Positions 5,998 through 51,382 of a stretch of 64,000 bases of DNA are shown in pieces. The stretch spans positions 18,978 through 82,977 of the forward strand of contig DASYTM010000010.1 of NCBI GenBank assembly GCA_036002345.1, in the 5' to 3' direction. The first letter of the stretch is position 1. The number at the start of each line of letters is the position of its first letter. The DNA comes from Candidatus Methylomirabilota bacterium. Its GTDB lineage: Bacteria; Methylomirabilota; Methylomirabilia; Rokubacteriales; CSP1-6. The position numbers and the translations under genes were made by a program. The notes under the pieces are model-generated. The model did no database searches. It worked only from the letters and a program-made list of their open reading frames with translations, and was not told the DNA's origin.

Positions 5998-6934
5998 ATG
6001 GCGGCGGCGGTCGCGGATGCTCGGCTCGGCCGCCGCCTCGTGCTCGACGAGATCTTCGATCTCTCGCTCTATCGCGCGCTGCGCGACGTCGCGCCCGCGC
6101 ACCTGGCGCCCGTGTTCGACGCCCTCATCCCGATCGAGACCCGCCACGTCGCCTTCTGGCAGAAATTCTTCGGGCTCGAGTCCGTCACCGGCCTCGACGC
6201 CGGCCGGCGGCTGAAGCTCGCCCTCCTCGTGCTCGTGTGCCGGCTCTTCGGCGCGCCCGCCATCCACATCGTGCTCGAGGCCATCGAGGTGCACGGCATC
6301 CGGAAGTACCTGGAGGTGTGGCGCCGCTACGGCGACACCCCGCTCGGCGCGGCCGTGCGCGCACGAGGACCTCGTGGTCACCGCGGAGGCCGCCCGCCGG
6401 ATCAACCCCGAGAAGGTGCGTAACCTCTTTCTCGGTCTCAACGACGGCCTGGTGGAGATCCTCGGCGCCGTCAGCGGCTTCTTCGCGGCCTTCAACAGCA
6501 ATGCGGCCGTGGTGGCCGCCAGCTTCACGGTCGGGGTGGCGGGGGCGCTCTCGATGGCCGCCGGCGCCTACATCGCCGCCGGCTCGGAGGCGGAGCTGCG
6601 CGCGACGGAGGAAGCGCGGCGGCGGTTTCTCGCGGAGCCGGTGACGAGCGAGGCCGGCGAACGGCCGCTCGGGGCCGCGGCCATCGTGGGGATCGGCTAC
6701 CTCGTCGGCGCGATCGTGCCCGTGCTCCCGGTGCTCTTCGGGGCGCGCAGCGTGCTGCCCACGGTGGCGACGGGCGGCGCGATGATCGTGGCCGTCTCGG
6801 CGATCGTGGCCTTCATCTCCGGGATGAACGTGCGGCGCCGCATCACGCTGAACGTGGTGATCACCGGCCTGGCCGTGATCGTGACCTACGCGCTCGGGCT
6901 GCTGGCGAAGCGACTGCTCGGCGTCGAGCTCTAG
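5998..6934 (+). pseudogene. VIT1/CCC1-family iron/manganese transporter with N-terminal ferritin-like domain; reading frame broken by an apparent frameshift near 6355-6375
   Basis: Frame 1 (5998-) encodes the ferritin-like part. A different frame (6374-6934) encodes the VIT1 membrane domain (NPEKVRNLFLGLNDGLVEILGAVSG..., multiple TM helices). A contiguous protein is normally expected (...AAVRA|HEDLVVTAEAARRINPE). Confidence 0.6.
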
Positions 6935-7812
6935 AGCGTCGCGCGGACTTCGGACGCGAAGCGCTCGATCGCTCCCGTCATCGAGGCGAGGTCGCGCGCG
7001 GCCGTCTCGAGGATCACGTGATCCACGCCGAGCTCGCGCAGCGCCTCGACGTCGGCGCGCAGCTCCGCGGCCGGCTTCTTGCCCGGCAGCCCCAGCCGGG
7101 CGCTCAGCGTCAGCGTCTTCGGGTCGCGGCCCGCCTTCTCGCACGCCGCGCGCAGGTGGGCGAGCCCCTCCCTCAGCGCCGGCGCCGTCGGGAACGCCGC
7201 GTGCCAGCCGTCGCCCAGCTCGGCCACGCGCCGGAGCGCGCGTGGCGTGTGGCCGCCGATCCAGATGGGGATCGTCCCACGCGCCGGCGCGGGCCGGCAC
7301 GCCAGGGCGTCGAAGCGGAAGAACTCGCCGGCGTGCGCCGCGCGCGGGTCGCGCCAGCACGCGCGCATCACCCGGATGGCCTCGTCGCTCCACGCGCCGC
7401 GCCGGTCGTAGGGCGCGCCGAGGGCCTCGATCTCCTCGCGCATCCAGCCCACGCCCGCGCCCAGGATCACGCGGCCGGGCGCCAGGTGATCGAGCGTGGC
7501 CAGCATCTTGGCGGCGAGCAGGGGATGGCGATGCGGGAGGACCAGCACGGTCGTGCCCAGCGCCACGCGCTCGGTGACGCCGGCCACCAGGGCCAGCGCG
7601 GTGAGCGGCTCGAGGAAGTCCGTGGCGGGCGGCAGCGGGAAGTCGCCGGTGGCGTTGTACGGATAGCGCGAGGCGATCCGCCACGGCAGCACCACGTGAT
7701 CGCTCGCCCACAGCGAGTCGTAACCGAGCGCCTCCGCACGGCGCGCGAACCCCACGAGCGTCTCCCGCGTCGCCGCGGCCCCGTACACGGGCAAATGGCA
7801 GCCGAATTTCAC
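6931..7812 (-). CDS. Luciferase-like monooxygenase (LLM) family / F420-dependent oxidoreductase
   Basis: VKFGCHLPVYG...GYDSLWASDHVV...LEPLTALALVAGVTERVALGTTVLVLPHRHPLLAAKMLATLDHLAPGRVILGAGVGW. GTG start overlaps the stop of the upstream acyl-AMP ligase. Confidence 0.75.
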   Translation of the reverse strand: MKFGCHLPVYGAAATRETLVGFARRAEALGYDSLWASDHVVLPWRIASRYPYNATGDFPLPPATDFLEPLTALALVAGVTERVALGTTVLVLPHRHPLLAAKMLATLDHLAPGRVILGAGVGWMREEIEALGAPYDRRGAWSDEAIRVMRACWRDPRAAHAGEFFRFDALACRPAPARGTIPIWIGGHTPRALRRVAELGDGWHAAFPTAPALREGLAHLRAACEKAGRDPKTLTLSARLGLPGKKPAAELRADVEALRELGVDHVILETAARDLASMTGAIERFASEVRATL

Positions 7813-9407
7813 GCGTTCAGGATGCGGTCGCGCAGCTCGTCGTCCCGGACCATCTGCGCCAGGCGCGAGCGCTGGATCTTGCCGCTCGACGTCTTGGGGA
7901 TGGTGGAGGGCTGCACGAGCAGCACCCGCGCCGGGCGGTGGCCGGTGGCCCGGTGCACGCGCTGCACGATCTCGCGGACCACCGCGCCGAGATCGGCGAT
8001 CCCGTCGCGCAGCTCGGCCACCACGTAGAGCCGCTGCGTGCCCGTCCGTTCGCTGTCGATGCCGATGGCGGCGGAGTACCGCACGCCGGAGACGCGGTCC
8101 ACGACCTCCTCGATGTCGGCGGGCACCAGGTTCTGGCCGCCGAGGATGATCACGTCCTTGAGCCGGCCGGTGATGTAGAGGAAGCCCTCGGCGTCGACGA
8201 AGCCGAGATCGCCGGTGCGGAGCCAGCCGTCGCCGGTGAGGACGCGTGCGGTGGCCTCGGGGTTGTTGTAGTAGCCCTGCATGACGCCCGGGCTCTTCAC
8301 GCACACCTCGCCCTCGGTGTTCGCGGGCACGTCCGTCAGCGCCACCGGCCCGTCGTCGCGCGCGGGCTCGGCGATGCGCAGGGAGACGCCGGGGCACGGC
8401 GCGCCGACGGAGAGCCAGCGCCCCGTGCGGTCGTAGCGCAGCGGCACGCCGCGCGGCCAGATGGCCACGGCCAGCGTCGCCTCCGCGAGGCCGTAGCACG
8501 GGCGGATGATGCCCTTCAGCCCGAAGTGCGCCTCGAACGCGTCGATGGTGGACGTCCGGACCGGCTCGGCCCCGGAGAGCGCGGCCTTGAGGGTGGAGAG
8601 GTCGTACTCCGAGACGTCGCGCGTGTTGCGCACGCAATTGCGATAGCCGAAATCCGGCGAGACCGTGAAGGTGGCGCGCACCCTGGTGATCGTCTCCAGC
8701 CACGGGCGCGGGTTGCGGAGGTCGGGCGGCAGCAGCCAGATCGGCGTGGCGGTGAGGGGCGGCGTGAACGCGCAGCCGATCAGGCCCATGTCGTGATAGA
8801 GCGGCAGCCACGACACCACGCGGTCGTCGGGGTTGAGCCCCGCCGCCTCCGACATGAACTTCGTCGTCTCGACCACGTTCTCGTGCGTCAGGATCACGCC
8901 GCGCGGCTCGCCCGTCGAGCCCGACGTGTACTGCAGGAAGCACAGGTCGGTTGGCCGCGGCGCGTGCTCGGGCGGCAGCGGCGCGTCGGAGTCGAGCTCG
9001 TTGGGCTCGAGCACCAGGCGCACGTTGGGGGCCAGGGCCACGCTCGCGTCCACGCCGGCGCGGAACCAGCCGATCGTCGCCACGGCCACGGCCTCGGAGT
9101 CGCGGAAGACGTTCGCCGTCTGCTCCACGCCGAGGGTGGGATACAGCGGGACGGGCACGGCGCCGAGGCGCAGCGCGCCGAAGAACGTGTAGAAGAACTC
9201 CGCGCACGTCGGGTAGACGAGGCAGACCTTGTCCCCCGGCCGCACGCCGGCGGCGGCGAAGCCCGCCGCGTAGCGCCCGCTCCGCGCCCAGAGATGGCGG
9301 TACGTCACCGTGTCGTCGAAGAGCGAGAAGTACTGCGCGTCGGGCGTGAGTGCCGCACGGCGCCGCATGACGTCGGTCAGCGTCGTCGCCGCCCTGGGAT
9401 CGCTCAT
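7809..9407 (-). CDS. Fatty-acyl-AMP ligase / AMP-dependent synthetase family (FAAL-like)
   Basis: YTSGSTGEPRGV (AMP-binding core), WLPLYHDMGL, GEVCVKSPGVMQGYYN, LRTGDLG. Start MSDPRAATT at 9407. Confidence 0.85.
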   Translation of the reverse strand: MSDPRAATTLTDVMRRRAALTPDAQYFSLFDDTVTYRHLWARSGRYAAGFAAAGVRPGDKVCLVYPTCAEFFYTFFGALRLGAVPVPLYPTLGVEQTANVFRDSEAVAVATIGWFRAGVDASVALAPNVRLVLEPNELDSDAPLPPEHAPRPTDLCFLQYTSGSTGEPRGVILTHENVVETTKFMSEAAGLNPDDRVVSWLPLYHDMGLIGCAFTPPLTATPIWLLPPDLRNPRPWLETITRVRATFTVSPDFGYRNCVRNTRDVSEYDLSTLKAALSGAEPVRTSTIDAFEAHFGLKGIIRPCYGLAEATLAVAIWPRGVPLRYDRTGRWLSVGAPCPGVSLRIAEPARDDGPVALTDVPANTEGEVCVKSPGVMQGYYNNPEATARVLTGDGWLRTGDLGFVDAEGFLYITGRLKDVIILGGQNLVPADIEEVVDRVSGVRYSAAIGIDSERTGTQRLYVVAELRDGIADLGAVVREIVQRVHRATGHRPARVLLVQPSTIPKTSSGKIQRSRLAQMVRDDELRDRILNA

Positions 9408-11005
9408 CACTGGCTCCTCTCGAGCGTCGCGGAGGTCTCGTGGTCGCGTCCGTTGCGGAGATAGACGAGCCGCACCGTGTCGCCGGGCCGGCGCGCGCGG
9501 ATGGCCTTGCGGAGCGACTCGAAGCCGTCGAGCGACACGTCGTCCACGCGCACCAGCACGTCGCCGTCGCGGAGCCCGGCGCGCTCGGCGGCGCTGCCGG
9601 GGATCACGTGGGCCAGCCGGGCGCCGTCGCCCGCGTGGCCGTCGCCGCCGACGCCGAGGTAGGCGCCGCCCGCGGCGGCGCGCCCGGCGCGCTGGCGAGC
9701 CGTCGGCGCCGGGACCTTCGCGTAGACCGGGCGCGCGCCCTCGTCGAGCGAGGTGACGATGGCGGCGCCCACGGCCGCCACCCGCGCCATGCCGTCCACG
9801 TTGAGCTTGTCGGCGGTGTCGCTCGGACGGTGATAGTCCTCGTGCCCGCCGGTGTGGAAGAAGAGCACCGGCGTGCCGGCGGCGTAGAAGCGCGTGTGAT
9901 CCGAGGCCGAATAGGGAGTGCCGCGGAGGTCCGCGTTCACTCCAGCCGCGCGCGCGGCCTCCGCGGTGGCCGCGCGCAGCCGGTCGCCGGTGTCCACGCC
10001 CCCCACGGTGAGCTTGTCCTCGCGCATGCGGCCGACCATGTCGAAGTTCAGCATCGCGACCGTATGGCCCAGCGGCAGCGCGGCGTGGCGCACGTAGTGG
10101 CCGGAGCCGATGAGGCCCAGCTCTTCGGCGCCGAAGAGGGCGAAGACCAGCGTGCGGCGCGCGCCGCCGGCGGCGGCGAAGGCGCGCGCGAGCCCGACCA
10201 CGACGGCGGCGCCGGAGGCGTTGTCGTCGGCGCCGTGGTACACGTCGCCGCCCGCCGCGCCGAGGTGGTCCCAGTGCGCCCCGAGCACGACGATCTCGCG
10301 CGCCAGGGCGGGATCGGTGCCGGGCAGCACGCCCACCACGTTGGCGGCGCGCACGTCCGCGGCCGCGAGGTCCACCACGAGCCGCGCCGGGACCTCGCCT
10401 GCGGCGCGGAGGGTGTCGGCGACCGCGCGCGTGATCGTGCCGGACGCGATGTCCACCGATGCCGCCGTCGCGTCGAGAGCGGGCAGCGGGTCCGCCACGA
10501 CGAGCACGGCCGCCGCGCCGCGGTGGCGCGCCTCGATCAGCGTCTCGAGCCGCGAGCCGCGCGCCGGCGCCGCCACGACGATCCGGTCGCGCACGTCGGG
10601 CCACTCGTCCGCGACGAACACCAGCGGCGCGGTCACCGCGCCCAGGCGCGAGCCTCCGTGAGGCATCCACTCGACGCCGGGCTGCAGCATGCGGCCGCCG
10701 GCGGTGAGCGCGTTGCCGGGACCCAGGCCCCGGCCCGGCGCGACGCTGAACGGTTGTAAAAACGTCCCGGCGTCGCCGCCGGGGCGCAGGCCGGCGGCGG
10801 CGAGCCACGCGGCGAGCCGCTCGATCGCGCGCTCGCCGCCGGGCGTGCCGGCGCGACGGCCGTTCATCTCCGGCGCGGTGAGCGTTTCTACAACCGTGCG
10901 GAGCTCGGCGGAGGTCGGCGGGACGACGGGCGTGCGGCCGAGCGCCGCCGTCGACGTCAGGACGAGCGCGAAGGCAGCCAGCAGCGTCGCGGGGCGGCGG
11001 ATCAT
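9407..11005 (-). CDS. Secreted M28-family aminopeptidase with C-terminal PDZ domain
   Basis: Signal peptide (MIRRPATLLAAFALVLTSTAALG). M28 motifs (HWDHLG...GADDNASG, FALFGAEELGLIGS, DHTRFY). C-terminal PDZ (GARLAHVIPGSAAERAGLRDGDVLVRVD). Confidence 0.8.
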   Translation of the reverse strand: MIRRPATLLAAFALVLTSTAALGRTPVVPPTSAELRTVVETLTAPEMNGRRAGTPGGERAIERLAAWLAAAGLRPGGDAGTFLQPFSVAPGRGLGPGNALTAGGRMLQPGVEWMPHGGSRLGAVTAPLVFVADEWPDVRDRIVVAAPARGSRLETLIEARHRGAAAVLVVADPLPALDATAASVDIASGTITRAVADTLRAAGEVPARLVVDLAAADVRAANVVGVLPGTDPALAREIVVLGAHWDHLGAAGGDVYHGADDNASGAAVVVGLARAFAAAGGARRTLVFALFGAEELGLIGSGHYVRHAALPLGHTVAMLNFDMVGRMREDKLTVGGVDTGDRLRAATAEAARAAGVNADLRGTPYSASDHTRFYAAGTPVLFFHTGGHEDYHRPSDTADKLNVDGMARVAAVGAAIVTSLDEGARPVYAKVPAPTARQRAGRAAAGGAYLGVGGDGHAGDGARLAHVIPGSAAERAGLRDGDVLVRVDDVSLDGFESLRKAIRARRPGDTVRLVYLRNGRDHETSATLERSQ

Positions 11006-11020
11006 CTCCGCGTAGTTTAC

Positions 11021-12445
11021 CTAATTCACGCGGACGACGCGGCCACCGGTGACGCGGCGCAGCTCGTCACTGGTGAGACGAAACACGGTGTGGGGATGGC
11101 CCCCCGCGGCCCAGATCGCGTCCCACTTCAGAAGATCCTCGTCCACGAGCGTCGTGAGCGGCGCGGGATGCGCGAGCGGCGCGACGCCCCCGATGGCGAA
11201 GCCGGTGTGCGCGCGCACGAACTCGGCGTCGGCCTTCCCGAGCGGCTCGCCGAGCAGCGCGCCGAGCTTGGCCTCATCCACCCGGTTCGCGCCGCTCGTG
11301 AGCACGAGCAACGGCCGCCCGCTGTCGCGCAGCCGGAACACGAGCGATTTCACGATCTGGCCGACGTCGCACCCGACGGCGCGCGCGGCGTCGGCGGAGG
11401 TGCGCGCGGCGTGCTCGAGCACCACGATGGTGGTCGTCACCCCCGCCGCCGCCAGGGCGTCGGCGACGCGGCGCGCGCTCGCGGGCAGCGCAGCCGGAGC
11501 AGCGACGATCGACCGGCAGGCGCGCATCTGGTCGAGGTGCTCCAGGTCGTGATCCGCCATGTGCGTGACGTACTGGGCGAGGCTGAGCGGGCCGAAGAAG
11601 CCGGAGAGGCCCGGCCGCTCGCCGGCGCCGGGCGGCAGCGTGGCGAGGTACGCGACCGCTTCGGCGCGCGCGCGGCGAAACGCCGCGAGGTCGTCCTCGA
11701 ACCGGCCCGCTCGACGGTCGCGCTCGCGCGCCCACGCCACGGGATCGAAGGCGGCGAAGCGCGGGCGGTCCTCGGTGGCCATGAGCCGGAAGCGCGGGAG
11801 GAAGAGCCGGCTGTCGAGCTCCATCAGGTGGGCCAGCACTTCCTTCATCGACCACTCCTCGGGCTCCGGCCGCCGGGAGAGCGTCTCGGCGTCGAGCCCC
11901 GCGGCGAGCGCGGCCACGAGGTCGGGCGTGGCGGCGAGTGGCTTCAGCAATTCGCCGAGCGGGAGCGCCACGCGCGCCTCGCAGCGCTTGGGCGTCAGGC
12001 CCAGCGTGGCGCGCACGTCCTGGATCTGCCGCAGGTGCTCGGTGTCGTGGGCGTCCATCGTCCGCGCGTAGGCCTCGACGCTCACGGCGCCGCGGCTCGG
12101 GCTCACGCCCTCGCGGCGCCAGCCGGCCTCGTCGAGCCCGCCGAGCAGCGTGATGGTCTGCTTGCGCGCGGCGGCGAACGCCGCCAGCAGCGTGGAGAGG
12201 TCCGCGTTGTCGCCCTCGGTGCGCTGGGTCTTGTCGAACACCGGGCGCGGCTCGGCGAGCATGCGGCGCAGGCGCGGCAGGAACGTGTCGCGGTCGCCCT
12301 CGACGAGGTGGCGCACGACCTCGCCGATCGACCACTCGCCGGGCTTGGGCGGCGTCCACGCGTGCGTCCCCGGGTCGCGCGCCATCTCGCCCAGCAGCGT
12401 CGGCGTGGCGGCGAGCCGCGCGACGGTCAGCTCGCGCTCGGTCAT
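11021..12445 (-). CDS. Fusion protein: two DinB_2-like (DinB/YfiT four-helix bundle) domains + YbaK/ProX-type aminoacyl-tRNA deacylase-like domain
   Basis: Two repeats with DinB-type His motifs (HLVEGDRD...HDTEHLRQI; HLMELDSR...HDLEHLDQM). C-terminus resembles the YbaK deacylase fold (GCDVGQIVKSLVF...VLTSGANRVDEAKL...GFAIGGVAP). Start MTERELT at 12445. Confidence 0.65.
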   Translation of the reverse strand: MTERELTVARLAATPTLLGEMARDPGTHAWTPPKPGEWSIGEVVRHLVEGDRDTFLPRLRRMLAEPRPVFDKTQRTEGDNADLSTLLAAFAAARKQTITLLGGLDEAGWRREGVSPSRGAVSVEAYARTMDAHDTEHLRQIQDVRATLGLTPKRCEARVALPLGELLKPLAATPDLVAALAAGLDAETLSRRPEPEEWSMKEVLAHLMELDSRLFLPRFRLMATEDRPRFAAFDPVAWARERDRRAGRFEDDLAAFRRARAEAVAYLATLPPGAGERPGLSGFFGPLSLAQYVTHMADHDLEHLDQMRACRSIVAAPAALPASARRVADALAAAGVTTTIVVLEHAARTSADAARAVGCDVGQIVKSLVFRLRDSGRPLLVLTSGANRVDEAKLGALLGEPLGKADAEFVRAHTGFAIGGVAPLAHPAPLTTLVDEDLLKWDAIWAAGGHPHTVFRLTSDELRRVTGGRVVRVN

Positions 12446-13176
12446 AGTGACCGCACCGCGCGCAGCACGTCGGCGGGATCGGGGCGCACCTGGAAGTTGT
12501 CGGCGAGGGAGAGCCAGCGCACGGCGCCGCCGCGATCGAGCACGATGGTCGCCGGCCGCGGCACGTCCTCGCCGTGCTCGCCGCCGCGCGCGTGGATCAG
12601 TCCGTAGCGGCGCGTCACGGCCAGGTCGCGATCGGCGACGAAGCGGAAGTTGAGCTTCAGCCCGCGCGCCAGCTCCTGGCTCCGCTCGTTGGGATCCGGC
12701 GAGACGGCGATGATCTCGACGCCGGCCTTCTCGGCCTCGGACAGCGCGGCTCCAAGCCCTTGGAGCTCCGCCACGCAGAACGGTCACCAGTAGCCGCGGT
12801 AGAAGACGAGGATCACCGGCTTCTTGCCGCGATACTCCGCGAGCGTGACGGGACGGCCGCCCGCGTCGGGCAGCGTGAAGTCCGGCGCGGGCCGGCCGAC
12901 GGCGAGCGCGGTCGGTGTGTCGGGGATTCGCGCCAGCACGAAGTTGAAGGTGGCGCCGCCCGCGAAGAGCGCCAGCGTCAGCCCCAGCGCGGTCCACGCG
13001 TACCAGCGGCGGCCGAGCGCCACGGCGAGGCCGGCGAGCGTCGCCGCGATCGCGAGCGCCGCCACGTAGCCCTCGGGCTGGTTGCGCACCGCGGGCACGC
13101 GCAGCAGCAGCGCGTACGCGGCGACGGCCGCGGCGGCGACGGCGAGGCTGAGGGCGGTGAGCCAGCCGGCGCGCAT
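12442..13176 (-). CDS. Membrane-anchored TlpA/ResA-like thiol:disulfide oxidoreductase (redoxin); candidate selenoprotein with in-frame TGA (Sec) at 12784-12786 giving a W-U-P-F-C motif
   Basis: A single frame is continuous across the TGA: ...APDFTLPDAGGRPVTLAEYRGKKPVILVFYRGYW-[TGA]-PFCVAELQGLGAALSEAEKAGVEIIAVSPD... It aligns to the redoxin consensus (APDFTL...WCPPCR.E.P). The N-terminus has 3-4 TM helices. Other genes in the window use TGA as a genuine stop. Confidence 0.7.
12749..12766 (-). promoter_or_regulatory. Candidate bacterial SECIS hairpin 17 nt downstream of the in-frame UGA of the redoxin gene
   Basis: mRNA reads UGA CCGUUCUGCGUGGCGGA GCUCCA-AGGGCU-UGGAGC. This is a perfect 6-8 bp stem with a G-rich apical loop. 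Confidence 0.4.
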
Positions 13177-13868
13177 CAGATCACGATGCGGTCGAAGCAC
13201 TCGGCGTAGGCATAACCCTTCGGCTGGCCGAGCTCGGCGTTGCGGTCGCGCACGCGCTTCTCGATGGCGGCGAAATCCTTGAACTGGCTCGCGTGGCAGG
13301 CGAGGGCCTTGATCTTGAGGTCCATCACGTCGCTGATGTCCACGACCACGTGCGGGTTCTGCCACTGCATGACGTAGACCTCGCGGACCTTGTGGGGCTC
13401 GAACTCCGCCATCAGCTCGGGGAAGGCGAGGTGGTCGCGCGACAGCGGATAGACGCAGTCCAGCGCCACGCCGGCCACCGTCCGGTGGTCGCGGTGCGAG
13501 GCCCCGAGATTGTACGTGCGCTGCGGATTCTGGCAGAGGACGAGGTCGGGCCGGAAGCGCCGGATCTCGCGCGAGACGTCGCGGCGGAGGTCGCGCGTGT
13601 CCTCGACCTCGCCGTCGGGATAGCCGAGGAAGGCGACCGACTCGATGCCGAGCGTGCGCGCGGCGTGCTTCTGCTCCTCGGCGCGGATGGCGGCCAGCCG
13701 CGGCGAGGTCATCGTGCGGTCGCTCGAGCCCTTGTCACCGTTGGTGACGACGACGAGGGCGACCTCCTTGCCTTCCTTGACGAACTTCGCCAGCGTCCCG
13801 CCCGCGCCGAACTCGGAGTCGTCGGGGTGGGCGGTGATCACGAGCACGCGCCGGATCGGGTCGGTCAT
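13176..13868 (-). CDS. PIG-L/LmbE family N-acetylglucosaminyl deacetylase (BshB/MshB-like)
   Basis: VLVITAHPDDSEFGAGGTLAKF...VVTNGDKG... matches the LmbE-like zinc deacetylase signature. TGATG overlap with the upstream redoxin start. Confidence 0.8.
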   Translation of the reverse strand: MTDPIRRVLVITAHPDDSEFGAGGTLAKFVKEGKEVALVVVTNGDKGSSDRTMTSPRLAAIRAEEQKHAARTLGIESVAFLGYPDGEVEDTRDLRRDVSREIRRFRPDLVLCQNPQRTYNLGASHRDHRTVAGVALDCVYPLSRDHLAFPELMAEFEPHKVREVYVMQWQNPHVVVDISDVMDLKIKALACHASQFKDFAAIEKRVRDRNAELGQPKGYAYAECFDRIVI

Positions 13869-13957
13869 TCGCGCCGGGGTCTCCCTCGTGGTTTTGAAAT
13901 TGAGATGCCGGGGTCCAGCATACCGATTCACCGCGGACCCCGTGCGATAATCCCGCG

Positions 13958-14161
13958 ATGTCAGCGGACCGCGGGCGCCGGATCGCGGTGGTCGTGCTGG
14001 TGCTGCTGCTCTCCCTCCCGCCGCTGGCCCTGCTCCTGCCCGGCTCGCCCGCCACCGTGCGCGTCGCCGGCGTCGGCGTCCTCTGGTGGTACGCGGCTCT
14101 CGCGGCGCCGCTCCTCGGCGCGGCCCTCGCGACGGTGATTCTCCGCCGCGCGTCGCGATGA
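13958..14161 (+). CDS. Small hypothetical membrane protein
   Basis: 67 aa, two hydrophobic helices. Stop overlaps the next start (ATGA). Confidence 0.35.
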   Translation: MSADRGRRIAVVVLVLLLSLPPLALLLPGSPATVRVAGVGVLWWYAALAAPLLGAALATVILRRASR

Positions 14162-15594
14162 CCGGCGCCCGCGCGCTCGCCGCCTGGACCGGCCCCGCGC
14201 TCGCCGCCGCCGTCGTCGCGGGCATCACGGCCGGGACCGCCGTCGCGCCGGTGCTCCTCCTCAGCGCGGCGCTGGCCCCGCTCGTCGCGCTGCTCCAGCC
14301 CGCGCGCGCGCCCGCGGCGCCGCACGCGGTGACGCTCGCGCTCACCGCCGTCGTCGCCGCGCTGCTCCTGTGGGCGCACGTCGCGCTGCTCGCCGACACC
14401 GCGACGCTGCTCGGCGCGGGTCGCGCGCAGGCCGTCGTGCTCGCGCTCGCGCTGGCCCTGCTCGTCGGGCTGGTGCCCGGCGCCGGGCGCTGGTGCGCGG
14501 TGGTGGGCGGGCTGGGGGGCGTCGCGCTGCTGCTCGTCCTCGTGGACGCCGCGGCGACCGTCGGCGTCGCGCCGTGGACGGCGTGGCGGGAGGCCGCCGC
14601 GCGGCCCGCGGTCGTGTTCGGCGCGCGCAGCCCGTGGGTCCGCGACGGCGAGCGCCTCGTCCGCGGCGCCACGCTCGCCTTCGACGAGGGCCACCGCGTC
14701 GTCGCGGTCACGCGGGGCACGCTTCGCGTCGTCGAGGCCGACGGCGCGCGGCGGGTGGTCCGCGACTGGCGGCTGGCCGCGGGCGACGCCGTCAGCCTGC
14801 GGCCGGCCGACACGCTCGTCGCCGAGGCGGGCAGCCGGCTGCGCTTCGAGCCGGGCAAGCGCGTCCCCGGCGCCGCCGCGTCGGGCTCGGCCTGGGCCGA
14901 CGCCGCCACGCGCGCGCCGCTCGCTCAGGTCGTGGGCCTGGCCGTCACGCTCCTGCTCGGCGCCGTGGCCCTCGTGCCCGCGGGGGGACGGCGCGCCGCC
15001 GCCGCGCCGGCGATCGTCCTCGTGTTCGCGCTCGGCACGGCCGCGTGGGGCGTCTACGCGGCCGTGGTCGCGCCGGAGTCGGGGCTGGCCGGCTCACCCG
15101 CGGAGGCGCTGCTGGCGCCGGCGCGCAGCGCGACGCCGGGCGGTGAGCTCTCGCCCGGCGCGCTGACCATCGTGGTCGTCGTGGGGCTGCTCGCGCTGTT
15201 CGTCGCGGCGGCGGGCGCGCTCCGCGATCGCGTCGCGGAGACCGGCGGCCGCCGGTGGCCCGAGGCCTGGATGACGGCGGTCATTGCCGCCGGCCTCGCC
15301 GGCCTGGTCGACGTCGTCGATCCGTGGACGCCGCTCGCGGCGGGGCTCGGCGTGGCGGCGGCGGCGCTGGCGGCGCCGCGGCTGGCGGGCGCCGACGGGG
15401 CGTGGATCGGCCCGTGGCCCGCCGCGGCGGTCGGCGGGCTGGTGGGCGTGGCCGTCTTCGCCGCCGTGGCGGCCCTTGGGGCCGGGCTGCCCGCCCCGCT
15501 GGCAGTCCTCCGTGACCTCCCGGCGCTGGCCGCGGCGCCGGCGGCGTGGGTGATCGTGAAAGTCTTACGACGGGAGGCGGGCGAGACGCGCTGA
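14158..15594 (+). CDS. Hypothetical polytopic membrane protein (Ala/Leu-rich, 8 or more predicted TM segments with a central soluble beta-rich insert)
   Basis: Long hydrophobic segments. No recognised family. Codon periodicity is consistent with the neighbouring genes. Confidence 0.45.
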
Positions 15595-15635
15595 GGGTTG
15601 GCAAGGCCCCCGCCGCCCTACCATAATGGGTGGAC

Positions 15636-18407
<2,772 letters not shown>

Positions 18408-19852: not shown

Positions 19853-22800
19853 GCCGCGGCCGCCGACTCCTCGTCCTCGGGGCGGCCGTCGCCGGCGTCG
19901 CGGGGGTGTGGATCGGGGGCGGCGTGCTGCTCCTGCGCGAGGTGGACGCGCGCGGCGCCGCCATGGCCGACCTCGCCGCCGAGCGCGCCGGCGCGGCCGT
20001 CGCCGAGGAGCGCCGCGCCCTCCTCCGCGAGGCGGCGCTGCTCGCGCAGGAGCCGGCCGTCGTCGAGGGCGCCGCCCGGCGCGACTGGGCGACGCTGGCC
20101 CGCGGGGCCGCGCGGCTGCGCTCGCTCACCATGGAAGGGCACGCCGACCTCGTCGTCGTCCTCGACGCCGCCGGCGCGCCGCTGCTCCAGGTCCCGGCCT
20201 CGCCACGCGTCGAGCTGCCCGCGCTGCCGCCGCCGGCGCGGCCCACGGTGAGCACCGTCACCCTCGGCGGGCGCGCGTACCTGCTCGGCGTGGCGCCGAT
20301 CGGCGGCGAGCCCGGAGGCGGCCTCGTCGTGGTGGGCCGGCGCGCCGAGCGGCCCGCCGCGGCCGGCGGCGACCGGCTGCGCCACTCGAACGAGGTGTCG
20401 CGCCAGGGCCTCGTGCGCGCGCTGGTGGCCAGCGGCGCGCTCGCGGCACTCGCGGCCGCCGCCATCGCGCTCTTCGCCACGCGACGGCGCGGCCCGGCGA
20501 CGCCGCGGGCCGCCGCCACGCCGGCGGCCACCGGCGGGCGCGAGCTCAAGGCCCTCTACGAGGCCGCCGTCCTCGTCGGCAGCGGCACCGAGCTCGAGGC
20601 GACGGTCACCCAGACCCTCGCCGTGATCTGCGCGGTGGCGCGGATCGACCTGGGCATGGTGTACCGCGTCGATCGCGCGAGCGGACGGCTGGCGCTCGTC
20701 GCGCACTACGCGATCCCTCCGCGCTACATGGACTTCCTCCAGACGCGGTCGATCGAGGGCACGCGCATCGGGCAGACCGCGCGCACCGGCGAGCACACGC
20801 TCGTGGACCTCGATCCCGCGCGGCTCCGCGATCCCGTCCTGAAGGAGGCCGTGGCCCGCGAGGGCTACCGCACGCAGCTCTCGCTGCCGATCCCGGTGCA
20901 GGGGACGACGTGGGGCGTGATGACGCTCGTCTCCAAGGAGCGCCGCCGCTTCGACGCCGACGAGCTCACGCTGCTCCACGCCGTCGGCCACCAGCTCGGG
21001 CTCGCCGTGGCCAACGCCGCGCTCTTCGCGGAGACGGGCGCCAAGTCCCGGCGGCTCGAGACGCTGACCCGCGTCGCCCAGGGCCTGGCCGCCACGCTGC
21101 CCGACGAGGAGCTGTTCGCCCGCGTGATCGGTGCCGCGCGCGAGACGTTCGACGCGGCCGCCGCGCGCCTCTGGCTCCTCGAGGAGGACGGCGAGACGCT
21201 CGTCATGCGCGCCGGCGCTGGCGTGGAGCTCGCGAGCGAGCTGCGCCGGGTGCGCGTCGGCGAGGGCCTCACCGGCCGGGTCGTGGCCCAGCGCGCGCCG
21301 CTGACCGTCGCCGACCTCGCCACGGACCCGCGCCCGCTCGCCAGCGACCGCCTGCTCGCGCAGGGCATGGCCGCCTACGCCGGCGTGCCGCTGGTGGTGG
21401 GCGACCGGGTCCTCGGCGGCCTGGCCATCGGCCTGGCCCGGCCGCACGAGTTCAGCGCCGAGGAGCTGGAGGTCCTCACCTCACTTGCCAACCTCGCCGC
21501 GGTGGCCATCGAGAACGCGCGCCTGCTGTCCGGCGAGCGCACGCGCCGCCAGTACCTCGGCGCCCTCCTCGACATCAACACCAAGATCGGCGCCATGGCG
21601 CCGACGGAGACCCTGCTCACCTCCATCGCCGAGGAGGCCGCGCGGCTGCTCGGCGTGGACAACGCCGGCTTCCGCCTCCTCGAGGGCGACGACCTCGTGC
21701 TGGCGGGGCTGGCAGGCACCGCGCGCGAGACGATGCTCCGCCCGCGCATCAAGATCGGTGAGAGCGTGAGCGGCAAGGTGCTGGCGGCGGGGCGGACGCT
21801 GCGGCTGGACATCGAGGAGGTGCCGGACATCGTGCCCGAGCACCTCGTCGCCGACCGGCGTCACGGTTACACGAAATTCCTCGGGGTGCCGCTGCGCATC
21901 GGCGAGCGGGTCATCGGCGTGCTCACGTTCCGCGCGCGCTGGCCCTTCAGCGCGCGCGACGAGGAGCTGGCGGAGGCGTTCGCCGGCCAGGCCGCCATCG
22001 CCATCGAGCACGCGCGCCTCGTGCGCGAGGCGTCGGAGCAGGCCGGGCGCCTGCGCGCGCTCACGGACCTCTCGCGCCTCTTCACGGGCACGCTCGAGCC
22101 CGACGTCGTCAACGAGCGGATCGTGGACAGCGTGGGGCGGCTCTTCGCGTCGGTGTCGGCGACGCTCTTCCGCATGGACCAGGCCACCGGGGAGCTCGTG
22201 CCCATGGCGACCTCGGCGGCCGGGACGCGCCTGGCGGCGCCCGTGCCCGTTCTGCCGCGCGGGGTCGGCATTTCCGGGCTGGCCGCGCTGTCGCGCCGGG
22301 TGGTGGTGTCGTCGGACGTGTCCGCGGACCCCAACATCGAGCGGAGCGACGCCCTGCGCGACTGGGCCGCCGCCGTCGGCGACTACTCCGCGATCGCGGT
22401 GCCGCTGGTGGTGGGCGACGTGCTGGTCGGCGTGCTCACCGTGCGCGGCGAGCGCGGCCGCGTCTTCGACCCGGCGGACTCGCAGCTGGCGCAGACGTTC
22501 GGCGACCAGGCGGCCCTCGCCCTCGCCAACGCGCGGCTGTACACGGAAGCGACGCAGCGGCGCGCGGAGGCCGAGGAGCTGGCGCGCCTGGCGCGCACGC
22601 TCACCGAGTCCCTCGACGTCTCGGAGGTCGTGGAGCGCACGGCGGAGAGCGTGCTGCCGATGTTCCGCGCGCAGTCCTCGGTGGTGCGGCTCCTCCAGCC
22701 CGACGGCTCGCTGGTGGCCCTCGCCCTGGGCGGGCGCGCGCGCGACCAGTTCGAGATGGGCCACGTGCTGCCGCCCGGCGTGGGCGTGCTGGGGCGCGCC

Positions 22801-25800
22801 GTGGTGAACGGCCGCGTCGCGTCGTCGTCCGACCTGTTCACCGACCGGAGCACGCGCGTCTCCGACGATCTGCGCGAGCGCGTGCACGCCAGCGGCGACG
22901 GCGCGGTGCTGGCGGTGCCCATGCGCGCCAAGGGCGTGATCATCGGCGCGCTGGGGATCGCCGACCGGCCCGGCCGGATCTTCACGGACGGCGAGGCGGC
23001 CCTGCTGCAGGCCTTCGCCGACCAGGCCACGCTGGCGCTGGAGAACGCCCGGCTGTTCTCGCTCGAGCGCGCGCGCCGCCAGCAGATCGCCGCCCTGGCC
23101 GACATCGAGCGCGAGCTGGCCGCCGTCCTCGACGCCGAGCGCCTGCCCGACCTGATCGTCGAGCGCGCCACCGGGCTCTTCAAGGCCAACGGCGCGCTGT
23201 GGATCATGGACGAGGCGGGAGGCCTGATGCCCCGGGCGTGGCGGGGGCAGGACCTCACGGGCGAGCGCCTGGGGCGGGGCGAGGGCTTCGCGGGCCTGGC
23301 CGTGAGCGAGCGGCGCGGCTTCATCACCAACGACTACGCGCGCTCGCCGCACGCGGTGGGGCGCTACGTCGACGCCGGCGTGCGCAGCATCATCGTGCAG
23401 CCCGTGATCCTGCGCGACCGGCCGCTCGGCGTGCTCACCATGAGCCGCGTGAGCACGGAGGCGCCGCCCTTCGGGGTCGAGGACCTCGCCCTGCTGCAGA
23501 GCTTCGCCGCCCACGCCGCCACCGCCCTCGACAACGCGCGCCTGTACGAGGAGGCGCGCCGCTACGCCGACCGGCTGCGCGCGCTGGAGGAGGTCAACCG
23601 CCTCGTCTCGTCCTCGCTCAATCCCGACGAGGTCCTCGCCAACCTTGCCCGCGCGATCTCGCAGTTCTTCGACGCGCCGTACGTGAGCGTGTGGAGCCTC
23701 GACGAGAGCACGGGCCGGCTGCGGCGGGCCCTCACCCACGGCGACTCCAGCCTGGCCTCCGACCTCCACCAGGAGCTCGCCCCCGGCGAGGGCGCGGTGG
23801 GCTGGGTCGTCCAGCACCGCGAGCCCATCCTGTGGACGGACGTGACCACGGACCCGCGCATCATCGACGGCGCGGAGCTGACGCGCGCCGGGTTCAAGTC
23901 GTTCACCGCCTATCCCGTCGCCATCGGCGAGCGCATGCTCGGCGCCTTCGCCGTGCACCGCGCCTCGCCGTGGCTGCTCACGCCGGAGACGGCGTCGCTC
24001 ATGGGCTCGCTGGCCGCGCAGGCGGCGGTGGCGCTGGAGAACGCGCGCCTCTACTCGGAGACGACTCGGCGCCTGACGGAGACCCGCGCCCTCCTCGAGG
24101 TGGCCGAGGTGCTGAACTCCACCCTCGACGCGCGCCAGCTCCTCAAGCGCGTCGCCATCAAGCTCGCGCAGATCCTCCAGGTGGACCGCTGCACGATCGA
24201 GCGCTGGGACGGCGACCGCGTCATCCCGCTCATGTCGCAGTTCGCCGACGGCCGGCGTCGCGAGCGGATGTGGGAGGCCTTCCTCACCGTCACCAACCGT
24301 CCCCTGCGTGACGTGCCGACCAACGCGCGCGCCATCGAGACGCGCCGGCCCGTGATCGTGGACGACGCCACCGATCCCGCCCTCACGCCGGCCGACTGGG
24401 TGGCGGCCTTCGGGCTCAAGTCGTACATGGTGGTGCCGATGCTCCGGCAGGAGGAGGTCATCGGCGTGGTCACGCTCGACTACTGCGAGCGGGTGGGGCG
24501 CTTCGCGCCGTGGCAGGCCGATCTCGCCACGGCCGTGGTCGGCCAGGTCGCCCTCGCGCTGGAGAACACGCGCCTGTACGGGGAGGCGCAGGAGCGGCTG
24601 CGCGAGACCACCACGCTGCTCGCGGTCGGCCGCGTGCTCACCGAGCGCGCCAGCGGCCCGGAGGCCATGCGCCGGGTGGCGGCGGAGGTCGCGCGCGCGT
24701 TCGGCGCCGACATGGCCGGCGCGTGCCTGCTCGACGAGCGCAAGGAGCGGCTCGTGGCCGTGGGCGGCTACCACGTCCCCAAGGATCTGCTGCAGGCCTT
24801 CGCGGAGCGCCCCATCGTGCTCGACCGCTTCCCGTGGCTGCAGGACGCCTGGCGCGCCGGCCGCGCCGCCACCAGCCCGGATCCGCACGCCGATCCGCGC
24901 TTCGACCAGGCGTGGCAGGCCGCGATGCCGCCGCACTCGCTCCTCTTCGTGCCCACGCTCGCCCACGGCGAGCCCGTCGGCGGCCTCTTCCTCGTGTGGT
25001 GGCACACCGGCCGCCTGTTCGATCCCGCCGAGATCCGCCTCGTGGAGGGCGTGGCCGCGCAGGTCGGCCTCGCCATGGAGAACGCCGAGCTGGCGCGCCA
25101 GACCCAGGTGAAGCTCGCCGAGACGCAGACGCTGCTCTCCGTGAGCCGCGCGCTCTCCACGACCCTCGACCTCCAGCAGCTCGTGCGGCACTTTCTGCGC
25201 GCCGTCGCCACCACCCTCGGCGCCGACTCCGTGGGCTCGTGGCTCGTGCAGGAGGACGGGGAGTGGATGGAGCCGCTCGTCGGCTACCACCTGCCGCGGG
25301 AGCGGCTCGCCGACGCCCGCGAGCTCCGGATCTCGCTGCTCAAGCACCCGTTCTACGCGGAGGCCGCGCGCACCAGGCGTCCGGTGTTCACGAGCGACGC
25401 CATGAACGACTCGCGCCTGCCCCCGGCCGTGCGCGAGCGCGGCTCGCACCGGACGCAGCTCTTCGTGCCCGTCGTGGTCAAGGACCGGATGATCGCCGCC
25501 TTCGCCGCCATCTGGTGGGAGACGGCGCGCGAGTTCTCCGAGGACGAGCTGGCCCTCATGGAGGCCATCGCCAACCAGGCGGGCGTCGCGCTCGAGAACG
25601 GCCGCCTCTTCGAGGAGAATCGCCAGCGCCTCGAGGAGCTGTCCGTGCTGCACGACCTCTCGCGCGCCGTCACCGGCCAGCTCGAGCGCGGGGCGATCGT
25701 GGAGGCGGTGCGGCGCCACATCGCGCGCGTGCTGGACGCGCGCAACCTCGTCATCATCGTGCGCGACGAGGAGCGGGACGAGCTGGAGGTGACGCTGCGG

Positions 25801-27300: not shown

Positions 27301-28092
27301 ATGGCCTTCCAGCACATCATCGTCGAGCGCGCCGCGCAGGTGGCGACCGTGACTCTGAACCGTCCCGACGCCTACAACGCGCTGAACCTCGGGCTCGGGC
27401 GCGAGCTCTTCGACGCGTCCATCCAGCTCGACGAGGATCCCGGCGTGCGCTGCGTCGTCGTCACGGGCGCCGGCAAGTCGTTCTGCGCGGGCGGCGACGT
27501 GCGCGACTTCGCCGACAACCTGCCGCGGGTGAGCGCGCTCATCAAGGAGCTGACGACGTACCTGCACGGCGCGATCTCGCGCTTCTGCCGGAGCGACAAG
27601 CCCGTCATCATGGCCGTCAACGGCATCGCGGCGGGCGGCGGGATGAGCCTGGCCCTGTCCGGCGATCTCGTGGTGGCCACGGAGTCCGCGAAGTTCACCA
27701 TGGCCTATTCCAAGATCGCCGCCACGCCCGACGGCTCGTCGTCGTATTTCCTGCCACGCCTGGTCGGCCTGCGGCGCGCGATGGAGCTCTACTTCACCAA
27801 CCGCGTGCTCACGGCGCGCGAGGCGCTGGAGTGGGGGCTCGTGACGCGCGTGGTGCCGGACGCCGAGTTCAAGCCCGCCGTCGAGACGCTGGCGCGCGAG
27901 CTGGCCCGGGGCCCGTCCAAGGCCTTCGGCGGCGCCAAGCGCCTCTTCCACCAGTCCACCTGGGAGAGCCTCGAGACGCAGATGGAGCTGGAGACGCAGG
28001 CCATCGCCAACTCCGGCCGCACCGAGGACTTCAAAGCCGGCGTCACTGCCTTCGCCAACAAGAAGCAGCCGCCGCCGTTCCAGGGGCGATAA
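27301..28092 (+). CDS. Enoyl-CoA hydratase/isomerase (crotonase) family protein
   Basis: VATVTLNRPDAYNAL...VVVTGAGKSFCAGGDV...VNGIAAGGGMSLAL. Confidence 0.85.
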   Translation: MAFQHIIVERAAQVATVTLNRPDAYNALNLGLGRELFDASIQLDEDPGVRCVVVTGAGKSFCAGGDVRDFADNLPRVSALIKELTTYLHGAISRFCRSDKPVIMAVNGIAAGGGMSLALSGDLVVATESAKFTMAYSKIAATPDGSSSYFLPRLVGLRRAMELYFTNRVLTAREALEWGLVTRVVPDAEFKPAVETLARELARGPSKAFGGAKRLFHQSTWESLETQMELETQAIANSGRTEDFKAGVTAFANKKQPPPFQGR

Positions 28093-28847
28093 TGGGGACC
28101 ATGAAAGCACGCCTGTTCACCCGCCCCGGCTGATCCTCCTGCGCCAAGACGAAGGAGCTGCTCTCGTCTTGGGGGGTCGAGTTCGACCCGATCGACGTGC
28201 AGGCGGACCCGGCGGCGCGCGCGGAGATGGAGCGGCTCGGCATTCCCCGTCCGCCCGGCGTCGCCTTCCGTGAGCGCGTCGTCCACGGCTGGAACCCCGA
28301 TGCCTACGCCGAGCTGCTCGGCGTGGACTTCCGCATGGGCGTGCGCTTCACGCCCGCCGAGCTGGCCTCGCGGCTCGAGCGCGTGCTCGAGTCCGCCCAG
28401 CACCTCACGGCGCGCTTCGACGCCCGCCAGATGGAGCACGTGCCGCCCGAGCGCAAGCGCACGCTGCGCGACCTCACGTTCCACGTCTTCCGCGTGGGCC
28501 TGTCCTTCGCCGACGCCGTGGACCGCGCGGCACTGCCCGAGGAATGGTTCGAGGAGCGCGCGCCGGCGGAGCTGGTGACGGGCGGCGACGTCGCGCGCTA
28601 CGGCGCGCTCGTGCGCGCGCGCCTCACGGGCTGGTTCCAGGGCGCCGGCGCCGACGAGTTCAAGCGGACCGTGGAGACCTACTACGGCCCGCAGGCCGCC
28701 GACGAGCTGCTCGAGCGGACGACGTGGCACGCGGGCCAGCACCTGCGCCAGCTCTACGTGCTCGCCGAGCGGCTCGGGGTGACGCCGCCCGCGCCGCTCC
28801 CCAAGGACGCACTCGAGGGATTGCCGCTGCCCGACGCGCTCTGGTAG
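28092..28847 (+). CDS. Glutaredoxin-like domain fused to DinB/YfiT-like domain; candidate selenoprotein with in-frame TGA (Sec) at 28131-28133 giving G-U-S-S-C in place of the Grx CPYC motif
   Basis: The single frame MGTMKARLFTRPG-[TGA]-SSCAKTKELLSSWGVEFDPIDVQADPAARAEMERLGIPRPPGVAF closely follows the glutaredoxin N-terminal signature (vY(t/s)kpgCpyCkkAKelLeekGvefeeIDV). The DinB-like C-terminal half lies in the same frame (HLTARFDARQMEH...HAGQHLRQL). TAATG coupling to the upstream gene. Confidence 0.7.
28144..28172 (+). promoter_or_regulatory. Candidate bacterial SECIS hairpin 11 nt downstream of the in-frame UGA of the Grx-DinB gene
   Basis: CCAAGACGA-AGGAGCUGCUC-UCGUCUUGG forms a perfect 9-bp stem. 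Confidence 0.45.
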
Positions 28848-40339: not shown

Positions 40340-40689
40340 TCGCCCAGCTCTTCGCCTACGGCTCGCTGATGCGCGGCTACGCGCTCCATGGCGTACTCGC
40401 GCGCGGGGCGACCTTCCTGGGCCGGGGCAGCGTGAGCGGGCGCCTGCTCGGGCTGGGCCGGTATCCCGGCCTGATCGAGGGCCGCGGCCGCGTGCAGGGC
40501 GAGATCTACCGTCTCGACGACCCGCAACTTCTCCCGGTGCTCGATCGGGAGGAGGGGTACAATTTCGTCCGTTCGATCGCGATCGTCACGCTCGCGCGCG
40601 GCCGGCGCACGCGGGCGTGGGTCTATCGATACCGCGGCCCGCGCGAGCGCGCGGTGCCGCTCCCGCATGGCGACTACCGGAGGACGTGA
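40336..40689 (+). CDS. Gamma-glutamyl cyclotransferase (GGCT/AIG2-like) family protein; probable non-ATG (CTG) start
   Basis: (L/M)IAQLFAYGSLMRG... carries the YGSL motif of the GGCT fold. The first ATG (40369) would remove this motif. Confidence 0.55.
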   Translation: MIAQLFAYGSLMRGYALHGVLARGATFLGRGSVSGRLLGLGRYPGLIEGRGRVQGEIYRLDDPQLLPVLDREEGYNFVRSIAIVTLARGRRTRAWVYRYRGPRERAVPLPHGDYRRT

Positions 40690-46247: not shown

Positions 46248-46248
46248 G

Positions 46249-51380: not shown

Positions 51381-51382
51381 CC

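Follow-up and report, generated by a model that had tools for sequence, protein, structure and literature searches.

What could join a deacetylase, a selenoprotein oxidoreductase, and a tRNA-editing domain in a single gene cluster? The question is raised by three minus-strand genes in a 64,000-nucleotide stretch of DNA from Candidatus Methylomirabilota bacterium (Rokubacteriales, CSP1-6; assembly GCA_036002345.1, contig DASYTM010000010.1, positions 18,978 to 82,977), the whole of which we call the window. The genes encode a PIG-L/LmbE-family deacetylase, a redoxin predicted to contain selenocysteine (Sec), and a protein in which two DinB_2 domains are followed by a domain of the tRNA_edit family. 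A first-pass annotation had read them, together with a glutaredoxin-DinB gene farther away, as a possible Sec-based redox or detoxification module dependent on a low-molecular-weight (LMW) thiol. Our data show that the genes form part of a real, lineage-specific, translationally coupled operon of Rokubacteriales; a role of its PIG-L/DinB-DinB core in the chemistry of thiol conjugates is proposed here tentatively.

A translationally coupled operon in Rokubacteriales

Genes were called with a codon-position G+C model and by direct reading of the sequence, the window having a G+C content of 73%. On this reading, the letters TGATG hold both the stop of PIG-L and the start of the redoxin, and ATGA holds both the redoxin stop and the start of the fusion-protein gene. 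Both junctions had been described in the first-pass annotation and are borne out on the minus strand, the second together with the Pfam domains of the double-DinB_2 fusion (Table 1). The PIG-L protein is 100% identical to the database entry 'PIG-L deacetylase family protein [Methylomirabilota bacterium]', and positions 7345..15844 of the window recur with 100% identity in a separate Joint Genome Institute (JGI) assembly of 8.5 kb. A scan of 6500..14300 for promoters and terminators gave only sites within coding sequence and was uninformative.

To follow the genes across species, we compared the genomic contexts of DinB-DinB homologs, nearly all of which are proteins of ~320 aa from Rokubacteria/Methylomirabilota, and scanned one genome per GTDB species. 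The same block of genes was found in L001, L004 to L008, and ~22 Rokubacteriales species, with 57 to 90% protein identity to the window. Its order is PIG-L, redoxin, DinB-DinB, a separate tRNA_edit gene (~158 aa), a secreted M28/PDZ peptidase, an adenylating enzyme resembling fatty acyl-AMP ligases (FAAL), and an LLM-class oxidoreductase. The peptidase gene keeps its position in all cluster-bearing loci, the positions of the FAAL-like and LLM oxidoreductase genes are likewise conserved across the species scan, and the redoxin gene, wherever present, sits exactly between PIG-L and DinB-DinB. Overlaps of 1, 4, or 8 nt between start and stop codons recur along the block and are retained down to 57% identity. 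With the NCBIfam model of the FAAL subfamily, the adenylating enzyme scores 311 bits and misses the cutoff of 600.

Table 1. Positions of the operon genes, of elements within them, and of the distant glutaredoxin-DinB gene (numbering of the window)
Feature	Position	Strand	Details
PIG-L/LmbE-family metal-dependent deacetylase	13868..13176	minus	230 aa; PF02585 E=7e-34
Membrane-anchored AhpC/TSA-family thiol:disulfide oxidoreductase, predicted selenoprotein	13176..12442	minus	244 codons (243 aa + stop)
In-frame TGA, probably read as selenocysteine	12786..12784	minus	redox motif W-U-P-F-C
SECIS-like hairpin GCUCCAA-GGNC-UUGGAGC (putative)	12749..12766	minus	begins 17 nt past the UGA
DinB_2-DinB_2-ProXp-x (tRNA_edit) fusion	12445..11021	minus	474 aa; DinB_2 E=6e-32, tRNA_edit E=3e-26
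Fusion junction	11470..11510	minus	DNA alignment with L001, L004, L010, L014 (separate genes) and L002, L003 (fused)
Secreted M28 peptidase with PA and PDZ domains	9407..11005	minus	predicted signal peptide; 15 nt downstream of the fusion gene
Fatty-acyl-AMP-ligase-like adenylating enzyme	7809..9410	minus	PF00501 E=1e-74; 4-nt overlaps with its neighbors
F420-dependent LLM-class oxidoreductase	6931..7812	minus	TIGR03619 265 bits (cutoff 167); last co-directional gene
Grx(Sec)-DinB_2 fusion, predicted selenoprotein	28092..28847	plus	TGA 28131..28133, motif G-U-S-S-C; outside the operon

The DinB-DinB and PIG-L proteins

The tandem DinB part makes up residues ~1 to 315 of the fusion protein and matches PF12867 in two stretches (111 bits). 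Each half carries a His triad (H46/H133/H137 and H206/H299/H303), and both triads are invariant in 54 sequences. An AlphaFold2 model of the fusion gave this part a pLDDT of >90; its best fold match was YfiT (1rxq), the bacillithiol transferase of B. subtilis, with a target-normalized TM-score of 0.77 to 0.80 and a root mean square deviation of 1.9 Å over 150 columns, and M. tuberculosis MST was also matched. The four-helix bundle and His triad of the DinB/YfiT-fold metalloenzymes are thus present, and the Pfam MST model is matched at 37.1 bits, above its gathering score of 27. The earlier assignment of the DinB domains to the thiol-S-transferase fold stands as far as the YfiT fold match and the MST family match carry it, but not as membership of the YfiT equivalog family, whose cutoff was missed. 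A cysteine in the KRCEAR linker between the two domains (Cys155, 11982..11984) is found in all 54 close homologs and is replaced only in two more distant ones.

The PIG-L protein has the motifs AHPDD and HRDH. Its best NCBIfam match is BshB1 (TIGR04001), at 121.7 bits against a cutoff of 182.5; BshB2 (TIGR04000; 88.1 bits, cutoff 195.25), Mca (59.7 bits, cutoff 277), and MshB (40.7 bits, cutoff 224) were missed as well. Among solved structures, archaeal diacetylchitobiose deacetylases (Dac) are closest, at 117 to 129 bits and with a best identity of 35% over the full length, followed by LnmX (114 bits), BshB-type enzymes (58 to 69 bits), and MshB (28 bits). We therefore reject PIG-L as a BshB or MshB ortholog, all equivalog cutoffs having failed and Dac structures scoring higher, and the description 'MshB/BshB-like' given to it in the first-pass annotation falls. 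That annotation had staked its thiol proposal in part on PIG-L not grouping with unrelated deacetylases; the bit scores against structures, which favor Dac and LnmX, go part of the way toward such a grouping.

What the operon may do

With a probability of about 0.4, we read the PIG-L/DinB-DinB core as performing thiol-conjugate chemistry comparable to that of MST/Mca or BstA/Bca. In this scenario, DinB-DinB would act as a pseudo-dimer resembling YfiT, with both of its His3 metal sites intact, and would add an LMW thiol to an electrophile, and PIG-L would hydrolyze an N-acyl-glucosamine bond of the LMW thiol, its precursor, or its conjugate. Because PIG-L is no BshB or MshB ortholog, the thiol is left unspecified. 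The selenoredoxin would serve as an accessory selenol-thiol oxidoreductase that is optional in the operon, and the tRNA_edit domain, which belongs to the ProXp-x family (see below), would be a cotranscribed tRNA-proofreading factor acting on α-aminobutyryl-tRNA (Abu-tRNA) and Ala-tRNAPro, its fusion to DinB-DinB being a tolerated by-product of gene overlap. The distant glutaredoxin-DinB fusion has a Sec/Cys pair, and a DinB domain is tied there to a redox-active thiol/selenol domain.

Several results weigh against such a function. At the level of the proteins, DinB-DinB scores 52.1 bits with the YfiT equivalog model NF009807, which has a cutoff of 160, and PIG-L is nearer to Dac and LnmX than to BshB, BshB2/Bca, Mca, or MshB, the families of the four failed NCBIfam models. 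No member of the BshA/C, MshA/C/D, or GshA/B families was found in the flanking sequence of at most 10 kb or among the window genes scanned with Pfam and NCBIfam, scans that covered most, not all, confident open reading frames. At the level of the operon, the redoxin gene is absent in five species (L009, L017, L020, L025, and L032), whose loci are scattered over at least three positions of a neighbor-joining tree; the Sec redoxin is therefore dispensable and not an obligate partner. The tRNA_edit gene is absent in one species, L016. Domains resembling ProXp-x occur elsewhere in fusions with at least eight unrelated partners, a promiscuity that makes the fusion alone weak evidence of a shared pathway.

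The linkage of the core itself is also broken in part of the lineage. In ~10 Methylomirabilota species (L028, L030, L031, L034 to L037, and L041 among them), DinB-DinB stands in another setting, context B, with the order SDR, YihY-like, family III coenzyme A (CoA)-transferase, SDR, DinB-DinB, and then, in some, enoyl-CoA hydratase (ECH). By neighbor joining, the context-B clade is nested within the block-bearing group, and tblastn searches with relaxed E values found no PIG-L, redoxin, ProXp-x, FAAL-like, or LLM gene near its DinB loci. The same searches near distant Chloroflexota DinB genes (28 to 39% identity) showed no such association. Finally, synteny extends to the entire region around the block (UvrA, pyruvate kinase, and a giant GAF kinase), and conserved order alone is therefore no proof of a shared pathway.

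Taken together, the first-pass proposal of an LMW-thiol-dependent Sec module stands in its coupled cluster, its occurrence in ~22 species, its YfiT-like His3 DinB domains, and the Grx(Sec)-DinB fusion; its thiol link is weakened by a Dac-like PIG-L, a dispensable redoxin, a subclade that breaks the linkage, and a sporadic fusion. A connection of the operon with a bacillithiol- or mycothiol-type thiol system remains unproven and is partly contradicted. Full-text literature searches for bacillithiol or mycothiol in Rokubacteria/Methylomirabilis found no report, and those for links among DinB, YbaK, and selenoproteins returned nothing relevant. Other sulfur and thiol genes in the window encode a two-domain rhodanese (34785..35654), a GGACT-like gamma-glutamyl cyclotransferase (40369..40689), and a DCC1-like thiol-disulfide oxidoreductase (42269..42652).

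The L016 locus shows a further peculiarity. Besides being without a ProXp-x gene, its redoxin ortholog (L016:7654 region) has an additional in-frame stop (VVLVL*RGYW-U). Both changes may reflect decay of the block in that metagenome-assembled genome (MAG) or an assembly error.

The main rival to a thiol-conjugate function, which we regard as only slightly less likely, is inherited synteny with no common pathway. Unrelated enzymes (a deacetylase of N-acetylglucosamine glycosides, an envelope oxidoreductase, a DinB metalloenzyme, a tRNA proofreader, a secreted peptidase, and lipid/F420 enzymes) would have stayed adjacent through collinear Rokubacteriales genomes, and the fusions would be neutral accidents. 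This would account for the equal conservation of the opposite-strand neighbors (the 478-aa membrane protein, UvrA, pyruvate kinase, and the giant GAF kinase), whose positions are as constant as those of the operon genes. It also suits an association that is confined to one lineage, is interrupted in a nested subclade, and does not occur in Chloroflexota relatives, with the redoxin and ProXp-x each dispensable and a Dac-like PIG-L. ProXp-x, besides being promiscuous in its fusions, has a known and self-sufficient function (PMC11295145), and the predicted locations of the products differ: the M28 peptidase has a signal peptide, the redoxin domain is probably periplasmic, and the remaining enzymes are cytoplasmic. 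Neutral inheritance is less at ease with start/stop overlaps retained at 57% identity, with a redoxin gene always exactly between PIG-L and DinB-DinB where it is present, and with three independent DinB-ProXp-x fusions, to which a DinB(PF05163)-tRNA_edit fusion elsewhere can be added.

ProXp-x and its recurrent fusion to DinB-DinB

The tRNA_edit part of the fusion protein (residues ~316 to 474) matches T. thermophilus TTHA1699 (2CX5) at 124 bits (E=5e-35, residues 6 to 157 aligned), with 50% identity in a structural alignment and with the VKSLVF and FAIGGV stretches conserved. With YbaK models, it scores 47.6 bits (TIGR00011, cutoff 153) and 30.8 bits (NF007951, cutoff 243), and solved YbaK structures give 32 to 34 bits. 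We thus reject a strict YbaK, that is, a Cys-tRNAPro deacylase, since both NCBIfam cutoffs were missed and 2CX5 fits far better. The 'YbaK-deacylase' domain of the first-pass annotation holds at the superfamily level; by sequence similarity, the family is ProXp-x. ProXp-x, of which 2CX5 is the structural representative, deacylates Abu-tRNAs and, less well, Ala-tRNAPro (PMC11295145). In the AlphaFold2 model, the ProXp-x part is poor (pLDDT 45 to 80) because the alignment holds only three fused sequences, and no inter-domain geometry is claimed.

The first-pass annotation had not recognized the DinB-DinB-YbaK architecture, and its rarity is confirmed: the full-length DinB-DinB-tRNA_edit arrangement forms one 50%-identity cluster (P0007) among 1.84 billion representative proteins. 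The fused genes of the window, L002, and L003 occupy three separate positions in the tree and have different linkers, which argues for three independent fusion events. Comparison of the aligned sequences thus shows that DinB-DinB and ProXp-x are normally separate, overlapping genes and that they became fused on three independent occasions. In relatives, ProXp-x begins with a GTG that overlaps the DinB-DinB stop (GTGGCTGA); at the window junction, a 1-nt deletion joins both frames, together with substitutions that remove the stop codon of the new frame. Elsewhere, in the metagenome proteins P0144 to P0227, ProXp-x-like domains are fused to an AAA_33 kinase, GNAT, DinB (PF05163), DUF309, a UPF0227 esterase, an ABC_tran ATPase, an AMP-binding domain (P0180), and a metallo-beta-lactamase.

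It is unlikely that the 474-aa protein is a sequencing or assembly error, with a spurious 1-nt deletion in an organism that has two genes like its relatives. It is true that one deleted base at the GTGGCTGA overlap sets the junction apart from the closest relatives and that the sequence comes from a MAG. Against an error speak the accompanying substitutions, which remove the stop codon in the new frame, the in-frame fusions with different linkers in the unrelated lineages L002 and L003, and the JGI assembly, which is identical across the junction, though probably from the same reads.

The recurrence of these fusions also invites a more ambitious scenario, which we consider improbable: the operon would make and use a new glucosamine-type thiol. 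PIG-L would free the amine; a cysteinyl group, drawn from an adenylate or Cys-tRNA, would come by way of the adenylating enzyme or the ProXp-x-like domain; and S-transfer would fall to DinB-DinB, with the selenoredoxin as its redox partner. MshC is a paralog of CysRS, and YbaK-type domains bind Cys-tRNA; PIG-L, the DinB thiol-transferase fold, and an adenylating enzyme do share one operon, DinB-ProXp-x fusions recur, and an AMP-binding-tRNA_edit fusion (P0180) exists elsewhere. Nevertheless, the block lacks a counterpart of the glycosyltransferases BshA and MshA, its adenylating enzyme resembles a fatty-acyl-AMP ligase, and the likeness to 2CX5 (124 bits, with VKSLVF and FAIGGV kept) argues for an ordinary deacylase function. 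In the context-B clade, moreover, PIG-L and ProXp-x are unlinked to DinB-DinB.

A selenoprotein oxidoreductase between PIG-L and DinB-DinB

With U replaced by C, the redoxin matches PF00578 (E=3e-31, 108 bits, cutoff 26) and Redoxin (E=6e-23). Its in-frame TGA occurs at the same codon in 18 of 19 orthologs, the remaining one (L024) having the Cys codon TGC, and the protein sequence is conserved to both sides of it in all 19; gene callers split these orthologs into products of 130 and 110 aa. Downstream lies a 7-bp hairpin whose stem is unchanged in 20 sequences except for one U-A to U-G change, and in whose loop only the third base varies. The stem consists of the codons CAA, CTT, and GGA, all of them rare in so GC-rich a genome. 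No covariation was seen in the 20 sequences, the folding energies of three segments after the UGA could not be distinguished from those of shuffled GC-rich sequence (z-score not significant), and an Rfam scan of the window at gathering thresholds matched neither a selenocysteine insertion sequence (SECIS) nor any other RNA family. The argument for a SECIS element therefore rests on conservation, and we infer that the hairpin is a putative one. Given the TGA in 18 of 19 orthologs, the TGC in one, the two-sided protein conservation, and the invariant hairpin, decoding of the UGA as Sec in a genuine selenoprotein is well supported by the comparison of orthologs.

That the UGA is instead a true stop, with the halves being separate genes or a pseudogene, is hardly credible: it would explain the split gene calls, the missing Rfam match, the unexceptional folding energy, and the lack of Sec machinery among the scanned window genes, but it leaves a UGA at the redox-active position of a WCxxC motif within one Pfam domain, conserved on both sides in 19 orthologs with a Cys codon in one and an invariant hairpin, in a phylum reported to be rich in selenoproteins (PMC13188914).

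Pfam scans, which covered most window genes, turned up no Sec-machinery family, and only one tRNA was called in the window, a doubtful tRNA-Pro rather than a tRNA-Sec. This ARAGORN call, an 86-nt tRNA-Pro(CGG) at 43518..43603 on the plus strand, lies inside an NMT1_2 open reading frame and is probably a false positive.

As to the type of enzyme, the W-U-P-F-C motif places Sec at the Thr position of the peroxiredoxin TxxC, and the peroxidatic motif PxxxT/SxxC is not matched. In the thioredoxin fold, Sec in place of Thr gives a CxxC-type thiol:disulfide oxidoreductase like TlpA/ResA, not a peroxidase. The NCBIfam scores (BCP, 57 bits; SelL-related, 52 bits with a cutoff of 120; ResA, 50 bits; PrxQ and PrxU also below) reach no cutoff. 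A peroxiredoxin proper, that is, a thiol peroxidase, was rejected on the position of Sec and on the BCP, PrxQ, and PrxU scores. The motif thus points to a UxxC oxidoreductase resembling TlpA/ResA, which would be accessory and not obligate. Three N-terminal hydrophobic segments are conserved, and the second loop carries RR or RRR; by the positive-inside rule, these charges weakly suggest that the redox domain faces the periplasm.

A glutaredoxin-DinB selenoprotein and other Sec candidates

The Grx(Sec)-DinB fusion reported at a distance in the first-pass annotation was recovered ~14 kb from the cluster, with its Pfam domains and in-frame TGA. L053 and L055 retain the UGA (YYRPG-U-SSC); in P0490, a homolog with Cys, the motif reads CSSC. 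Grx(Sec)-DinB_2 proteins form a conserved Rokubacterial family whose gene is cut short by gene callers, which end it at the UGA. Directly upstream, in the window and close relatives though not beside the Cys form, is an ECH gene. Together with the CoA-transferase, SDR, and ECH genes of context B, this gene hints at a link of DinB proteins with CoA metabolism. The term 'DinB' is absent from the 2026 selenoproteome review (PMC13188914).

A third selenoprotein is encoded at 38989..39633 on the plus strand (TGA 39415..39417), and the same in-frame UGA is present in a relative (L050:12097-12750). The TGA at 53813..53815, between the glutamate dehydrogenase and cNMP-binding genes, was rejected as a Sec site, since it separates two unrelated complete proteins.

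Other features of the window

Divergent from PIG-L, at 13958..15594 on the plus strand, are genes for predicted membrane proteins of 67 and 478 aa. The pair has no Pfam or NCBIfam match and is conserved in every cluster-bearing locus at 45 to 71% identity. The giant kinase of the region is a hybrid histidine kinase of 2459 aa with 11 GAF domains (19906..27285, plus strand), whose slot beside pyruvate kinase and UvrA is conserved across Rokubacteriales. A DUF222 and HNH endonuclease gene at 29856..31253 (minus strand) has a coding-potential score that is weak compared with its neighbors and may be mobile or recently acquired.

Farther along, a nitrate/nitrite assimilation block (43478..51958, plus strand) encodes an NMT1_2 binding protein, an ABC permease, two ATPases, a molybdopterin oxidoreductase, an NIR_SIR reductase, and siroheme synthesis. 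A small cluster of nonribosomal peptide synthetase type (54368..63638, minus strand) consists of a 4'-phosphopantetheinyl transferase, a condensation-adenylation-thiolation-thioesterase (C-A-T-TE) module of 1346 aa, a cytochrome P450, an A-T protein of 585 aa, and an amidase.

Implications

All parts of the system come from known families; the novelty lies in how they are arranged and in two architectures, DinB-DinB-ProXp-x and Grx(Sec)-DinB. As matters stand, the value of these results lies mainly in annotation: one selenoprotein gene is split and two are truncated at the UGA by gene callers, all of which can be corrected; the label 'MshB/BshB-like' on the PIG-L gene has proved unsafe; and a rare DinB-DinB-ProXp-x fusion has been traced to overlapping neighbor genes. 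If the PIG-L/DinB-DinB core is thiol dependent, it would be a pointer to the redox buffer of an abundant, uncultured soil phylum and would provide the first multi-domain context for ProXp-x editing factors. Were the operon to make a thiol of its own, the recurrent DinB-ProXp-x fusions would mark a physical coupling of tRNA-linked amino-acid chemistry with thiol transfer. Of the bacterial selenoproteomes predicted, that of Methylomirabilota is reportedly the largest; one MAG of the phylum is reported to have 63 predicted selenoprotein genes (PMC13188914).

Comparison with known systems

The predicted prokaryotic selenoprotein families already include a 'Prx-like thiol:disulfide oxidoreductase, PF00578, UxxC' (2026 review, PMC13188914), and the operon's redoxin, with an AhpC/TSA domain and a UPFC motif, fits this family. 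It shares with the listed UxxC/UxxU proteins the domain, the UxxC center, a Cys ortholog, and a putative SECIS-like hairpin downstream, and it differs from them in its three-segment N-terminal anchor, in its fixed slot between PIG-L and DinB-DinB, and in reaching no cutoff of an NCBIfam selenoprotein model. Similarly, the Grx-DinB protein resembles selenoprotein glutaredoxins (PF00462, UxxC) in its U-x-x-C center and CSSC homolog; unlike them, it is fused to a C-terminal DinB_2 domain and reaches no NCBIfam cutoff for Grx or UXX-star.

Trans-editing factors of the INS superfamily have been described as single-domain proteins (PMC11295145). The domain found here matches ProXp-x (TTHA1699, 2CX5) over its full length and is a free-standing gene of ~158 aa in most relatives, whereas in the window, as in two further lineages, it forms the C-terminal part of a protein with tandem DinB domains. 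For PIG-L, the closest solved relatives are the archaeal Dac enzymes (PDB 8bgn, 3wl4, and 3we7), with 35% identity and aligned AHPDD and HxDH motifs; its host, in contrast, is bacterial, and no chitin-catabolism genes lie nearby.

The nearest functional parallels to the core are two pairs: in mycothiol organisms, the mycothiol S-transferase MST with the conjugate amidase Mca, and in bacillithiol organisms, the transferase BstA(YfiT) with BshB2/Bca. The PIG-L protein of the operon is orthologous to none of Mca, BshB1, BshB2, and MshB, the DinB domains stand in tandem in one chain, the thiol is unspecified, and the pairing belongs to one lineage and is broken in a subclade. What the operon has in common with both pairs is the combination itself, a DinB-fold His3 metalloenzyme with a PIG-L-family hydrolase.

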